Assembly: GCA_028697455.1 (NCBI GenBank)
Contig: JAQVEZ010000004.1
Span: 1-47,080, forward strand
Origin: Minisyncoccota bacterium
GTDB taxonomy: Bacteria; Patescibacteriota; Minisyncoccia; Phycocordibacterales; UBA1006
Length of the DNA stretch: 47,080 nucleotides
Direction: 5' to 3'
Part shown: piece by piece, positions 8,598 through 37,500 of the stretch
How the letters are laid out: every line of letters begins with the position of its first letter
How positions within the stretch are numbered: the first letter of the stretch is position 1
Notes under the pieces: generated by a model
Seen by the model: only the letters and a program-made list of their open reading frames with translations
Told to the model about the DNA's origin: nothing
Database searches by the model: none
Program-made: the position numbers and the translations under genes

Positions 8598-9875
8598 TTA
8601 GCTGTTTTGTCCCTGCATTGCAGAAAGGAGTTGTTGGTAGAGCCCCAAGAGTTCGGTATAGACACTGATCAATGGATTATTATTAGTAAATCCGTTTTGT
8701 GGTCGACAGAAAGTCGTAACTCCCGCTGAACAGAATCTGGTTCCGAAGATGCTTGAGGATTTAGAGGATAGATCTATTTTTTTATCGGGATACTTTCCTA
8801 TCAATAAATCTCTTGGACTTAATGCAATGAACATATTATTCCCAAAAGTAATAACACTCGTTTCCCAAAAATCTCCCTCAGGTTCCTGCAAAGACTCCCA
8901 ATCCTCACCATTTTCTGAAATTAAAATTTGGTTAGCAAGCCCATATCCATTATCTCCTCCAACAGCAACAAATATATCATTACCATAAGCAACAGAGCTC
9001 CATAGTATATTTTCTGTCTCAGTATCGTTGAGAGACTAATTTTTTCCATCCTCTGATGTCATAACCATCCCATAAAAAGTAGGGTTAGAATATCGGTATC
9101 CCACAGCAACAAAAAGTCCTTTTTCTTTTGAATAAGTTACAGACATCCATGCTGATCCAAAAGGTTCTGGTGTTTCTTGTATTTCCCAGTTCAAACCATC
9201 ATTTGATGTCGAAATTTGATTTCCACTGTATCCTCCCGCAGCAACAAAAAGTCCTTTTTCTTTTGAATAAGTTACAGAAAATAATTCAGCTTGCCCTTCT
9301 ATTACTTGAGGGTCTGACCAAGCTATTCCATTGGTTGATGTCATAGACACACCACTATCTCCACTAGTTCTTCCAACGGCAACAAAAAGCCCGTCTCCAT
9401 CATCGTCATAACCATAGGTTACAGAGCTCCAATAAATATTCTCTGTTTTAGCGTCTTCATTAATAAGCCAAGATTCTCCATCTTCTGATGTCATAACATA
9501 ACCAGTCTGATCATAATAACCCTTCCCAACAGCAACAAAAAGTCCTTTTTCTTTTGAGTAAATAGCAGATCCCCAGCTTACTTGACTAGGGTCTTCTTCT
9601 GACTGTGGATTAAGAGGTGTCGTCCAATTTAATCCGTCTTTTGAAGTAGAAATAACGTCCTGATCGTGTTCCGAATCATAACCAAAAACAATAAACAGAT
9701 CTTGCCCTAGGTTATTGTATCCATGCGTTATAGAACCCCACCTTATATCGTAACTAAAACTATTGGGAACCTTTGACCACTCAATCTCCTGTGCTGATAA
9801 TATTCCAGCTCCTCCAAAGAGAAAAGCTGCTGCTAGTAAAAAGCTATAAATGTGTTTGTATATATGTTTTGTCAT
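8598..9875 (-). pseudogene. Secreted BNR/YVTN-like beta-propeller repeat protein (425 codons) interrupted by one in-frame TAG at 9036-9038
   Basis: Signal peptide plus repeats of W-x-S-V-T-Y...FVAVG...(M)TS-x-DG-x-x-W. The frame continues after the TAG (SLNDTETENILWSSVAYGNDIFVAVGG...) and joins track ORF 8598..8891 in phase. Confidence 0.8.
9106..9278. repeat. Two identical 38-bp intragenic direct repeats (9106-9143, 9241-9278) plus a 26-bp partial copy at 9532-9557
   Basis: GCAACAAAAAGTCCTTTTTCTTTTGAATAAGTTACAGA occurs twice exactly; it encodes SVTYSKEKGLFVA on the minus strand. Confidence 0.85.
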
Positions 9876-9980: not shown

Positions 9981-12437
9981 TTATTTTACCTCTTCCCAAC
10001 CTGCAGAAAGGAAGTTATCGAGTTTTTTCTTTTTGATAGTTTTTATCTCTCCTCCTTTTCTAATCTTGATGTGATTATCAGAAGCAAAGCTTGGAGTTTC
10101 TTCTGCGACCTCTTTCGTTGATTCATTATTGTTTTGAATTTCAACATAAGAAAGAAGCTCAGAAACCTTGGCATAAAACTGATGATTCATTTCTTGATAG
10201 AGTCTCAATCCTTCCTTTTTATACTCAACAAGTGGATCTCTTTGTCCATAGGCACGAAGGTTCACTGATTGACGCGTGTATTCCATAACTTGGAGATGCT
10301 CCATCCAGAGCATATCAATCACGTACAAAGCAATACGAACCAAAGCATCTTCAAACTGTTCTTCGGTAAAGGCTTTTTTCTTCTCTTCAAGTTTTTGAGC
10401 AAAATCTCCTGCATTGAGAAAGACTTCTTCTTCTAGCTTTGCAATCTCTTCTTTATCTCGCAAGAGTATTTTTCTCCGCCGTTCATAAACGGTGTCTCGT
10501 TGATGAGAGAGAACGTTATCATAATCAAGCGTTGATTTTCGTGAGTCAAAGTGAAACCCTTCAACTTTTGCCTGAGCATTTTCGAGCTGGCGAGAAATCA
10601 TCTTGTTCTGAATAGCTTCGTCATCAGCAAGCTTCAAGGTTCCAATAATAGACTTCATTCGATCTCCTCCAAAAATTCTCATGAGAGAATCTTCAAGAGA
10701 AACGTAGAATTGTGTTTCTCCAACATCCCCCTGTCGCCCTGATCGTCCTCGTAGCTGGTCATCGATTCTTCGCGCGTCGTGACGCTCAGTTCCCAGAACA
10801 AAGAGTCCTCCGAGATCTTTAACCTCTTGCTCTTCTTCTGGGGTTGCTGGATTTCCTCCAAGCTTAATATCAACTCCTCGTCCTGCCATGTTAGTTGCAA
10901 TAACAACAGATCCTGGTTTCCCTGCTTGCGCAATAATTTCCCCTTCTCGCTCGTGGTTCTTTGCGTTCAAAAGCTCATGCTTTACTCCTGCCTGAGTAAG
11001 ATACGCAGAAAGAAGCTCATTGTTCTCAACCGAAACAGTACCCACGAGAACAGGTTGGCCCTTTTTTTGTTTTTCTTTTACTTTTTCAGCAATGGCTTTG
11101 AATTTTGCTTCTTCCGTTTGATAGATTAAATCGATATTATCAATTCTCTGAATGGGTCGATTTGTTGGGATAACCACAACATCAAGTCCATAAACCTTTT
11201 GGAATTCTTCTTCTGAAGTCTTCCCTGTTCCTGTCATACCAGAAAGTTTTCGATAAAACTTAAAATAATTTTGATAGGTAATAGAGGCGAGTGTTTTTGA
11301 CTCTTGTTGAATAGGAACTCGCTCTTTAGCTTCGAGCGCTTGGTGAAGTCCGTCTGAATATCGTCGCCCTTCTTGGAGTCGCCCAGTAAACTGATCGACA
11401 ATAATCACCTCATTGTTTTGGATAACATAATCTCGATCTCGCTGGAAAACAGCATGTGCTCTCAAGGCAGTTTCAAGATGGTGGACGAGTTTGATATTTT
11501 CTTGGGTATAAATATTTTTTATTTTGAGAGCTTTTTCAGCTTTAGAGATTCCTTGGTCAGTAATAGAAACCGCCCGAAGCTTTTCATCAAGGGTATAGTC
11601 AGTTCCCAACACTAAAGACTTTGCAAGAGAGTCCATTGCCATGTAAAGACCTTCTGCATCTTCTGCAGCCGTAGAGAGAATAAGTGGAACTCTCGCCTCG
11701 TCGATAAGAATCGAATCGACCTCGTCAACTACAGCAAAGACATGCCCTCGTTGAACGAGTTGGAGTTTTTGTTGTGCAGTATTATCCCGCAAGTAATCAA
11801 AACCAAACTGGCTGTTGGTTCCGTAGGTAATATCACAAGCGTATGATTGTCTTCGAGTACTTGGCTTGAGAAAGTCGTGAAAAACTCGGAAAGATCCCAA
11901 TTCATCTCGTTCTTTGTCTACCTCTGATTGTACGTGTTCTGCTTCGTATACAAAAGAAAGATTTTGGTCATTAATAACACCAACACTCAAACCATGGAAA
12001 TCAAATATCTGTCCCATCCACTGAGCATCTCTTCGTGCAAGGTAGTCATTGACCGTAACCACATGAACCCCTTCTCCGGTTAGGGCGTTGAGATACACGG
12101 CAAGGGTTGATACCAAGGTCTTTCCTTCTCCTGTTCTCATTTCTGCTATTTTTCCCCAGTGGAGAACCATTCCTCCTATCATCTGAACATCATAATGTCG
12201 CTGCCCTAAGGTTCGTACTGAGGTTTCTCGAACAACAGCAAAAGCCTCGGGCAACAAATCATCAAGACTCTCTCCCTGTGAAAGTCGTTCTTTGAACTCA
12301 GCGGTTTTGAGTTTGAGATCTGCGTTTGATAATTTTTGGAGTTCTGGTTCGTAGGCATTGATTGTTTCAACAATTTTTCGTGCCTTTTTGAGGACTCTCG
12401 TATTTTCATTAGAAATAAGGTTTAAAAGTATATTCAT
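9981..12437 (-). CDS. secA: Preprotein translocase ATPase SecA
   Basis: MRTGEGKT, VHVVTVNDYLARRD, DEVDSILIDEARVPL, TNMAGRGVDIKLG, QLRGRSGRQGD, QRDPLVEYK. Confidence 0.98.
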   Translation of the reverse strand: MNILLNLISNENTRVLKKARKIVETINAYEPELQKLSNADLKLKTAEFKERLSQGESLDDLLPEAFAVVRETSVRTLGQRHYDVQMIGGMVLHWGKIAEMRTGEGKTLVSTLAVYLNALTGEGVHVVTVNDYLARRDAQWMGQIFDFHGLSVGVINDQNLSFVYEAEHVQSEVDKERDELGSFRVFHDFLKPSTRRQSYACDITYGTNSQFGFDYLRDNTAQQKLQLVQRGHVFAVVDEVDSILIDEARVPLILSTAAEDAEGLYMAMDSLAKSLVLGTDYTLDEKLRAVSITDQGISKAEKALKIKNIYTQENIKLVHHLETALRAHAVFQRDRDYVIQNNEVIIVDQFTGRLQEGRRYSDGLHQALEAKERVPIQQESKTLASITYQNYFKFYRKLSGMTGTGKTSEEEFQKVYGLDVVVIPTNRPIQRIDNIDLIYQTEEAKFKAIAEKVKEKQKKGQPVLVGTVSVENNELLSAYLTQAGVKHELLNAKNHEREGEIIAQAGKPGSVVIATNMAGRGVDIKLGGNPATPEEEQEVKDLGGLFVLGTERHDARRIDDQLRGRSGRQGDVGETQFYVSLEDSLMRIFGGDRMKSIIGTLKLADDEAIQNKMISRQLENAQAKVEGFHFDSRKSTLDYDNVLSHQRDTVYERRRKILLRDKEEIAKLEEEVFLNAGDFAQKLEEKKKAFTEEQFEDALVRIALYVIDMLWMEHLQVMEYTRQSVNLRAYGQRDPLVEYKKEGLRLYQEMNHQFYAKVSELLSYVEIQNNNESTKEVAEETPSFASDNHIKIRKGGEIKTIKKKKLDNFLSAGWEEVK

Positions 12438-12463
12438 AGAGCAAAGTGTAGCATAAAATAATC

Positions 12464-12491
12464 AAAAAAACAGATGCAAAAACATCTGTTT
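12464..12491 (-). terminator. Intrinsic terminator of the candidate ncRNA
   Basis: Minus strand AAACAGATG-TTTTTG-CATCTGTTT followed by a T run. Confidence 0.75.
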
Positions 12492-12495
12492 CCCT

Positions 12496-12578
12496 TCCCC
12501 TCCAAAGAGAGCCAACGGGTGCGAGCTCCACTAAACATCCTATGTGAGTGCCGCCGTTGGCTCTCTTTAGAGAGGACT
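12496..12578 (-). ncRNA. Candidate rod-shaped structured RNA (SRP-RNA-like size and shape, or novel)
   Basis: 23-bp basal stem (12576-12554 with 12518-12496) that is fully paired only on the minus strand via G-U wobbles, a 35-nt apical region, an extended -10 TGt-TATACT at 12593-12585 and a downstream terminator. Confidence 0.6.
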
Positions 12579-12643
12579 CAATAAAGTATAACAAAGCTCA
12601 AATAAAAAACCAAAGATAAAAGCTTGTTTATCAATGGGTTTCT

Positions 12644-13120
12644 TTACTCTGCGGGAGTTTCTTCTGCTCCCTCAGGTTCTGCCCTTACTTCTTCCTCGGA
12701 AGTCTCTTCAGCAGGAGCTTCTTCATTTTCAGCAGGGGCTTCTACTGGAGCTTCCTCTACTCCTTCTGTTTTTTCAGTCTGTGCTTCTTCTGCAGGAGCT
12801 GCCACTTCAGGCTGAGCTACCTCAGACTCTGGTTCTTCTTTCTTGATAGCTGTCTTTTTAGGAAGAACATTTTTCTTTCTTCCAGAAACAATACCTTGAT
12901 CAACAAGCATATTATAAACGGTATCAGAGATTTGAACCCCTTTTGCTATCCAAGATTGAATACTTTCTTTATCCAAAGAAATTGTTCCCATTTTTGGATT
13001 ATAAGAACCAACAATGTCTATATACTTTCGTGACTTTGGTCCTTTTGTTTTTTCAATAACTACCACCTTAAAATGTGGTTGGTTTCTTCTTCCAATTCGC
13101 TGTAATCTTAACATCAACAT
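12644..13120 (-). CDS. rpsP: 30S ribosomal protein S16 with acidic A/E/P-rich C-terminal tail
   Basis: MLRLQRIGRRNQPHFKVVV, GSYNP, WIAKGVQISDTV. Confidence 0.96.
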   Translation of the reverse strand: MLMLRLQRIGRRNQPHFKVVVIEKTKGPKSRKYIDIVGSYNPKMGTISLDKESIQSWIAKGVQISDTVYNMLVDQGIVSGRKKNVLPKKTAIKKEEPESEVAQPEVAAPAEEAQTEKTEGVEEAPVEAPAENEEAPAEETSEEEVRAEPEGAEETPAE

Positions 13121-37077: not shown

Positions 37078-37157
37078 ATTCTCAGTATAGAAAAAAATAT
37101 CTTTTTTAAAAGGTAGAAAACTTTACGAAAAAAAATATTATGGCAAAATATATTCGT

Positions 37158-37462
37158 GGTATCGGGTAATCGCGCGACTGGAACACCAGAGTGAGGAAAG
37201 TCCGGACATGATTTTTTAAATAAAAAAGATAGCAGGTAACCCCTGTCCGTGGAAACACGCGAGGTGCGAACAGAGACGCTTAATCTGAAAAGAGAGAGTA
37301 CCCCTTGTGGGTAAGCTTCTTAGCAATAAGAAGTTGAAACGGCTAAATCCTTATCTTCATGCAAGGTCGAGTTTGCCTTGAGCATTCGTACCGCAAAGAA
37401 TATCTTGGTGACAAGATATCAAGACTAATGATTACCACAACAGAATCCGGCTTATAGATACC
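37158..37462 (+). ncRNA. rnpB: RNase P RNA
   Basis: GAGGAAAGTCCGG near the 5' end, ACAGAATCCGGCTTA near the 3' end, terminal pairing GGTATC/GATACC, followed by a terminator. Confidence 0.93.
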
Positions 37463-37464
37463 TA

Positions 37465-37500
37465 AAAACAAAATGCAAACAGATGTTTGCATTTTGTTTT
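37465..37500. terminator. Bidirectional terminator between rnpB and the DUF192 gene
   Basis: AAAACAAAATGCAAACA-GA-TGTTTGCATTTTGTTTT, long perfect inverted repeat. Confidence 0.8.

Follow-up and report, generated by a model that had tools for sequence, protein, structure and literature searches.

What does the minus strand of the rpsP-secA spacer encode in a Minisyncoccota bacterium, where a long hairpin fills a region that holds no annotated gene? The window, which here means the whole stretch of DNA analysed, comprises positions 1 to 47,080 of contig JAQVEZ010000004.1 (assembly GCA_028697455.1). A first-pass annotation made from the letters alone had seen in this spacer a stand-alone rod-shaped RNA, and had left the choice between a highly degenerate signal recognition particle (SRP) RNA and a new class of noncoding RNA (ncRNA) of the candidate phyla radiation (CPR). 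Across related loci the element is a conserved structure read from the secA strand, single-copy in each locus examined, syntenic, and absent from Rfam. We think it somewhat better than an even proposition that it represents a new family of stable, trans-acting RNAs of the Paceibacteria (Parcubacteria/Minisyncoccia, CPR), probably bound by protein.

Conservation and covariation of the rod

SecA homology was used to fetch 80 loci from metagenome-assembled genomes of Paceibacteria/Parcubacteria, with one genome per species. In the closest relatives the element again lies upstream of secA, with its apical sequence nearly unchanged, and the sequences of its stem differ yet stay complementary. Twenty-one copies were aligned with MAFFT; RNAalifold predicted 31 pairs on this alignment, 25 of them with compensatory double changes, and with the covariance model built from it (R1) the element was recovered at 42 secA loci out of 80. 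An exact scan of metagenome contigs for the core motif, described below, gave at least 120 loci among the matches listed, from sources that include groundwater, sediment and marine metagenomes; the element is abundant in such environmental data. The whole 95-position model is carried by 93 of the first 100 loci fetched in this way (50-91 bits), and two further copies are broken off at a contig end. Its members come from groups that carry the labels Nomura-, Yonath-, Campbell- and Ryanbacteria, and the lineages that share the RNA have SecA proteins that are 53-76% identical.

The conservation and covariation that the first-pass annotation had proposed to look for in relatives were found. In a set of 98 distinct homologues, compensatory double changes occur at each of the 24 rod pairs. 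Standard pairs make up 93.4% of the alignment cells, versus 39-46% in controls with the partner column displaced by 1-3 positions. Compensatory cells number 778 against a mean of 235 after shuffling, and none of 500 shuffles reaches the observed score. In the family alignment the rod pairs include 254 G-U/U-G and 57 A-C/C-A combinations, a ratio of 4.5 to 1, and the selected molecule is therefore an RNA read from the secA strand. This bears out the earlier suggestion of selection at the RNA level on the minus strand, which had been drawn from the window stem (23 pairs, two of them G-U and mismatched if read on the other strand). The covariance model likewise scores 38-95 bits on the secA strand versus at most 36 bits on the reverse strand.

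Among the inverted repeats listed for the 47-kb window the rod ranks first. Together with the terminator it folds on the minus strand with a minimum free energy of -66 kcal/mol (z = -9.26), which none of 200 shuffled sequences reaches, and the plus-strand fold is weaker by 14 kcal/mol. There is one copy in the window and one per locus across 206 loci (1.5 Mb examined), and the core motif pattern has no match in viral contigs. A mobile repeat of the repetitive extragenic palindrome (REP) or miniature inverted-repeat transposable element (MITE) type was accordingly rejected; many genomic copies, which the first-pass annotation had named as evidence for such a repeat, were not seen in these loci.

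A search for other rods in the secA loci that lack the RNA returned locus L021 only. At the same site upstream of secA (2798-2870 of that locus) it has no family member and carries another, equally long rod of about 17+5 bp, whose apical hairpin is paired throughout and behind which a terminator lies. This rod may be an analogue or a replacement of the family rod.

Anatomy of the RNA

All elements named by the first-pass annotation were located on the minus strand where it had put them. The extended -10 TGTTATACT can be read directly at 12585..12593, and the spacing predicts a start about 7 nt further on, at about 12578/12577, one or two bases ahead of the stem; this agrees with the start proposed before (about 12578), itself a prediction. 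The 5' arm of the rod, 23 nt long in the window copy, occupies 12554..12576 and the 3' arm, with a purine-rich base (GGAGGGG), occupies 12496..12518, both being supported by the fold, by an inverted-repeat search and by covariation. Between them lies an apical segment of 35 nt (12553-12519), identical to the sequence given in the first-pass annotation, which the family alignment divides into a near-invariant 5' strand of an internal loop (GCA-CUC-ACAUA, 12541..12551), a variable U-rich hairpin or loop (GGAUGUUUAG in the window, 12531..12540) and a near-invariant 3' strand (U-GGAG-CUC-GC, 12521..12530). An intrinsic terminator with a 14-pair stem and U7 follows at 12464..12495, as judged from the fold and from terminator prediction, and its hairpin does not overlap the rod. 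The transcript would thus measure about 115 nt including the terminator, with both its start and its 3' end as predicted.

Across the family the arms are 24 nt long in about 90% of the members, and the sequence of the helix is free. Just above the rod one or two positions pair loosely, a G-C/C-G clamp follows, and then comes the conserved core, near-invariant as GC-A-CUC-A-CA-UA on the 5' side and U-G-GAG-YUM-GC on the 3' side, in which Y-U-M forms a 3-nt bulge. The 40 loci found through secA are unbiased for the motif, and in these C, CUC and A are present in 40 of 40, most neighbouring positions agree in at least 33, and on the 3' strand GGAG, the U of column 74 and the G of column 77 are each present in all 40. 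CUC and GAG are predicted to form a helix of 3 bp; these positions and the C-G pair never vary, so that covariation neither supports nor rejects their pairing. The segment between the two conserved strands is U-rich and highly variable (11-17 nt, 79 variants) and forms small hairpins in differing registers, and no GNRA consensus was found across the 79 variants. We compared the invariant loop by eye with the K-turn, loop E, T-loop, tetraloop-receptor and T-box 'UGGN' motifs, and none of them fits.

In the window clade (L001, L003-L005, L008, L009 and L017) the base of the 3' arm, at 12496-12503 in the window, reads GGAGGUGAU, a perfect Shine-Dalgarno sequence complementary to the 3' end of 16S rRNA. 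It pairs with AUCGUCUC of the 5' arm, a second CACCUC is present in the 5' leader, and no open reading frame (ORF) lies behind it. A small ORF that covers the element (12409-12594) was rejected as coding: it has no Pfam match, and the stem across which it runs covaries and is free in sequence.

Comparison with SRP RNA, 6S RNA and other known classes

At the gathering threshold, a search of the whole window with Rfam 15 (4227 families) returned only RNase P RNA and one tRNA. No SRP or 6S RNA match was obtained at E<=10 with permissive filters, either on 12380-12700 or on 20 loci with diverse members, and what Rfam did match at this level on those 20 loci was hairpin noise such as microRNA models. 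The literature that we searched held no description of the rod motif or of a CPR SRP RNA. The best reading is that the rod belongs to a previously uncatalogued RNA class and, judged by the RNA itself, is not a canonical SRP RNA, and of the two options offered by the first-pass annotation it is thus the new class that these searches favour. A 6S RNA was likewise rejected, with only about 115 nt including the terminator, small loops only and no 6S match.

The degenerate SRP RNA had been proposed from a faint echo of the SRP motif in the window copy, and this echo fades when the family is considered. An alignment by hand of the apical domain to helix 8 of E. coli and human SRP RNA gives an AGG/AGC match for the window copy that is lost across the family. 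The position of the supposed UAGG is not conserved, and its triplet appears as AGG, AGA, AAG, UAG, GGG or AAA; the 3' strand is GGAG-YUM and not AGCA. For the GAG of the 'GGAGC', pairing with the invariant CUC is predicted, which would leave no symmetric loop of the SRP type. To our knowledge the GNRA-capped apical tip is the most conserved part of every SRP RNA, whereas in this family it is the least conserved part, with an apical loop that never holds a conserved GNRA.

We also looked for the protein partners and for a canonical SRP RNA elsewhere. Neither ffh nor ftsY was found in the window, in about 10 kb past each of its ends, in the rpsP neighbourhoods of four other Paceibacteria or in the 1.5 Mb examined; the search used tblastn with an E. 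coli Ffh sequence together with Pfam annotation, and covers a small part of any one genome. For the linkage of ffh with rpsP, S16 homologues were searched, four of them were looked up, and the ORFs at the ffh and ftsY positions were scanned with relaxed Pfam thresholds; neither gene came to light. In Bacillus the block runs rnc-smc-ftsY-ffh-rpsP-khpA-trmD. The rpsP neighbourhoods L207, L209 and L211/L212 have a similar order, rnc-smc-...-RNase R-x-rpsP-khpA-trmD-rpoB-rpoC-dnaG, with no ftsY or ffh in the block, and ORFs of 171-278 aa without a Pfam match stand at their positions. The ordinary Pfam M-domain model picks up the Ffh proteins of CPR bacteria, and this speaks for an ordinary RNA partner elsewhere. 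At the Rfam gathering threshold, a canonical SRP RNA was detected neither in the window nor in 134 kb of further loci, mostly from related genomes and a small part of each, and a scan of the 1.5 Mb for an AGG-stem-GNRA-stem-AGC motif gave three isolated matches, none with an SRP-like context.

The RNase P RNA of the window (class A, 37154-37470, plus strand) scores 103.6 bits against a gathering score of 100. Since it barely passes its threshold, the housekeeping RNAs of this lineage diverge from the standard models.

Promoters, terminators and neighbouring genes

A -10-like element (TGnTATACT, TGnTAnnnT, TATACT, TATAAT or TACGCT) lies 5-25 nt ahead of the rod in nearly all loci, often behind the terminator of the upstream gene, and in several loci it is part of a full TTGACA-17-TATACT. 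Of 135 unique family members about 61, the window clade included, have a hairpin and a U-run behind the rod. In at least 28 unique sequences there is no terminator and the start codon of murB falls between -6 and +27 nt from the last rod pair; in some of these murB-abutting loci GGAGG or GGGGAG is found within the 3' arm, 4-8 nt ahead of the ATG. A terminator and a fresh promoter separate the rod from the next gene, murB or secA, in the window clade and in L032/L033, a hairpin lies between rod and murB in L199/L200, and in L062 and L036 the gene after the rod is on the opposite strand.

The secA gene of the window (9981..12437, minus strand; Pfam SecA_DEAD, E = 1.9e-120) has a separate extended -10, TGCTACACT, at 12445..12453. 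Because this element ends 7 nt ahead of the ATG at 12437, the secA mRNA is probably leaderless, and it probably does not depend on the rod. The arrangement TGnTAcACT-N7-ATG is kept both in relatives that have the RNA and in the close relatives L007 and L010, which do not, and no Shine-Dalgarno sequence precedes the secA ATG in the window or at the equivalent sites of L001-L017, L007 and L010. The retention of this -10 in L007 and L010 and the RNA's own -10 in nearly all lineages speak for the independent transcript of the first-pass annotation and not for a leader of secA. The same layout is seen in L159, where TGATATAAT-N7-ATG precedes a pilin-like gene, and leaderless starts may be common in the window lineage.

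The first-pass annotation had placed the RNA in an rpsP-secA setting, of which the secA half holds in most loci and the rpsP half in the window clade only. In 107 of 156 loci, including loci fetched by the RNA motif alone, secA lies downstream on the same strand, about 80-3600 nt away. Upstream on the same strand, 65 of the 156 loci have a membrane protein with an O-antigen-ligase-like (Wzy_C) domain and TPR repeats, and murB is immediately downstream of the RNA in 54. Ribosomal protein S16 adjoins it in 15, all of the window clade, and the RNA is absent from the rpsP regions of four other lineages; a 3' untranslated region or terminator of rpsP was therefore rejected as an account of the element. 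In the unbiased secA set, 11 loci have a murB ahead of secA, and the RNA precedes murB in 9 of these; 31 loci have the RNA ahead of secA with no murB between.

Several features of the neighbourhood are recorded here in their own right. A small, very basic Lys/Ala-rich ORF (about 27-76 aa, MAAKKKAAKK...) recurs just upstream of secA and is absent from the window; it is found at 2656-2886 of L062 and 2607-2858 of L036 and also in L093, L106, L111, L126, L153, L176, L196 and L206, between the rod or murB and secA. Its product is a possible nucleic-acid-binding partner. A GC-rich subclade (L112, L195, L205, L108, L131, L184 and L183) carries, about 20-250 nt past the rod, the sequence GGACGGGUGCGAGC(UCCA), which is complementary to the RNA's own 3' core and inner 3' arm. 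Repeated partial modules of 3' arm, hairpin and anti-sequence follow in the same subclade, together with a conserved GCUCACAUACGCA stretch. This downstream region looks like an alternative-pairing or attenuator architecture, or else a tandem second element.

In the window, the upstream neighbour rpsP (12644..13120, minus strand; Pfam Ribosomal_S16) encodes 158 aa, versus about 97 aa in many relatives. The protein has a very acidic C-terminal extension of about 65 aa in which Glu, Ala and Pro abound. Just past its stop a weak hairpin with a U-run, at about 12604-12644 (z = -3.9), could be the terminator of rpsP. Downstream of secA, a protein of 279 aa (9036-9875, minus strand) has a signal peptide and internal repeats (…YSKEKGLFVAVG…), with no Pfam match and no relatives among the loci compared.

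A proposed stable RNA with a docking site, and rival readings

For the action of the RNA we propose the following, in which the transcript ends, the action in trans, the binding of a protein and the link to secretion are what we infer from sequence comparison. From an extended -10 of its own, the RNA would be made on the secA strand, beginning at the base of the hairpin and, in the window genome, running to the intrinsic terminator. The invariant asymmetric loop could be the place where a partner, most likely a protein, docks in a sequence-specific way, and the helix of fixed length, 24 bp, as a spacer that sets the distance between the docking site and the ends of the RNA. Its role would probably be tied to the envelope and secretion block formed by the Wzy_C-TPR gene, the RNA, murB, the small Lys-rich protein and secA. 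The persistent place of the RNA at the head of the Wzy_C-TPR/murB/secA block hints at a part in envelope biogenesis or export. The core is invariant even where a terminator and a new promoter insulate the RNA, and a purely cis role fails to explain its retention there.

Several observations weigh against this proposal. Twenty-three of the 80 secA loci lack the RNA, although 860-3000 nt of upstream sequence are available in those loci. The metagenome loci were chosen by the core motif, so that the invariance of the core is there partly a matter of construction. In about a quarter to a third of the lineages the rod abuts the start of murB with no terminator, an arrangement that is leader-like and fits a cis role in those lineages. 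A near-perfect duplex of 24 bp is also the type of substrate that RNase III takes, and the mature species could differ from the primary transcript.

That the element is not an RNA gene at all, being instead a DNA palindrome (a protein site or a REP/MITE remnant) or an elaborate terminator of rpsP, we regard as extremely improbable. Such an origin would account for an inverted repeat in the intergenic region downstream of rpsP; it is opposed by pairing that is kept while the stem sequence varies, by the strand-specific excess of G-U pairs, by the single copy per locus and by the promoter-like element and terminator of its own, and for the terminator also by the small share of loci in which rpsP is a neighbour and by the weak terminator that rpsP has for itself, upstream of the RNA promoter. 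A more serious rival, which we still consider unlikely, is a cis-acting 5' leader of an ancestral operon of murB, the Lys-rich protein and secA, in which the duplex hides the ribosome-binding region of murB, and of which the window copy is a decoupled descendant. Cleavage by RNase III, or a factor bound at the invariant loop, would then release an mRNA with a short leader or none. The RNA is indeed the first element past the promoter, it stands at the start codon of murB in the 28 or more sequences mentioned above and directly upstream of murB in most of the unbiased murB-secA loci, and the duplex, with its constant length of about 24 bp, is as long as the stretch that an RNase III dimer covers, rnc being present in relatives. 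The GGAGGUGAU at the base of the 3' arm of the window clade, with no ORF behind it, resembles a relic of such an arrangement, and the downstream segments of the GC-rich subclade, complementary to the 3' half of the RNA, resemble an attenuator. However, a purely cis element should decay once it is uncoupled, and in the window and many other lineages, where a terminator and a separate promoter or a gene on the opposite strand follow, the core is still invariant. The rod is moreover far too stable and does not overlap the terminator, so that no switch is evident, and RNase III sites normally need no invariant loop of 18 nt. A trans role and a role as leader or processing site of murB could also coexist.

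The remaining rival returns to protein targeting: the rod would be the SRP (4.5S-like) RNA of the Paceibacteria, with an Ffh-binding domain rebuilt without the GNRA tetraloop and the canonical symmetric loop. We rate this as quite unlikely, a little below the murB leader. It would explain a stable rod-shaped RNA of fitting size whose helix varies while the internal loop near the apex is conserved, which is kept class-wide and in single copy as a housekeeping RNA would be, and which is lastingly linked to secA, the other protein-export motor. The GGAGC of the 3' strand is faintly like the GGAAGCA of SRP RNA. No canonical SRP RNA competes for the part in the window, the roughly 134 kb of further loci or the 1.5-Mb motif scan, ffh and ftsY are missing between smc and rpsP, their place in Bacillus, and the RNase P RNA score is an example of how RNAs of this lineage diverge from the models. 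But the Rfam SRP models give nothing for 21 members even at E<=10, and the apical loop, which should be the most conserved part, is here the most variable one and is without GNRA. The 5' 'AGG' is free to vary, conserved internal loops are absent from the helix, and the invariant CUC/GAG helix takes up the 'AG' that a symmetric loop would need. Fusion of the rod to the start codon of murB in many lineages, and the fit of CPR Ffh to an ordinary M-domain model, also stand against it. In a wider form, the Paceibacteria would have rebuilt their protein-targeting particle, with the rod as its RNA subunit. The rod would then be either an SRP RNA with another domain in place of the one that contacts Ffh and FtsY, or an RNA partner of SecA. 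The idea in this form seems to us equally doubtful; if true, it would mean a break in an RNA-protein interface regarded as universally conserved.

The stable trans-acting RNA remains the reading that we prefer, and it touches a poorly charted part of bacterial biology. The Paceibacteria and other CPR bacteria make up a large share of bacterial diversity with tiny genomes, and we know of almost no ncRNAs in them beyond tRNA, rRNA, RNase P RNA and tmRNA. Because the RNA has been kept across lineages whose SecA proteins have diverged so far, it is unlikely to be a minor regulator. The invariant loop of 18 nt, the fixed helix and the strong promoter of its own point to an unrecognised ribonucleoprotein or control step beside the cell-wall gene murB and the secretion gene secA. 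Covariance model R1 can be used directly to annotate Paceibacteria genomes, and the RNA can serve as a bait for its partner. Should that partner be Ffh or SecA, the universality of the SRP RNA-protein interface would be touched.

Comparison with known systems

The small SRP RNA (4.5S; RF00169, clan CL00003) is likewise a stable single hairpin of about 100 nt, with a free, covarying helix and a functional internal loop near the apex, encoded by a single-copy gene that is conserved lineage-wide; the window RNA also adjoins a protein-export gene. In contrast to the SRP RNA, the window family has no Rfam SRP score and no GNRA, its cap is its least conserved part and its 5' AGG is not conserved. 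Its loops are of 1x3 and about 5x1, whereas those of SRP RNA are of 4x1 and 4x4, its helix is without conserved internal loops, and it is often fused to the start of murB. The 6S RNA (about 180 nt) is also a rod-like stable RNA with an internal loop, but the window RNA has half its size, no large central bubble and no Rfam match.

The leader hairpins cut by RNase III, such as T7 R1.1-type signals and the 5' untranslated region of E. coli adhE, resemble the family in having a duplex of at least two turns with an internal loop, located 5' of or between coding regions, and when such a hairpin is cut, a ribosome-binding site hidden by it can become accessible. With its constant length of about 24 bp the duplex of the window family fits RNase III signals. 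Unlike the window family, these hairpins are not deeply conserved in sequence and do not form a stand-alone unit with promoter and terminator. The orphan ncRNA motifs of the Breaker/Weinberg type held in Rfam differ from the window family in that it is not among the 4227 families of Rfam 15, and they share with it a function still unassigned, a definition by covariation and gene context, and confinement to one lineage.

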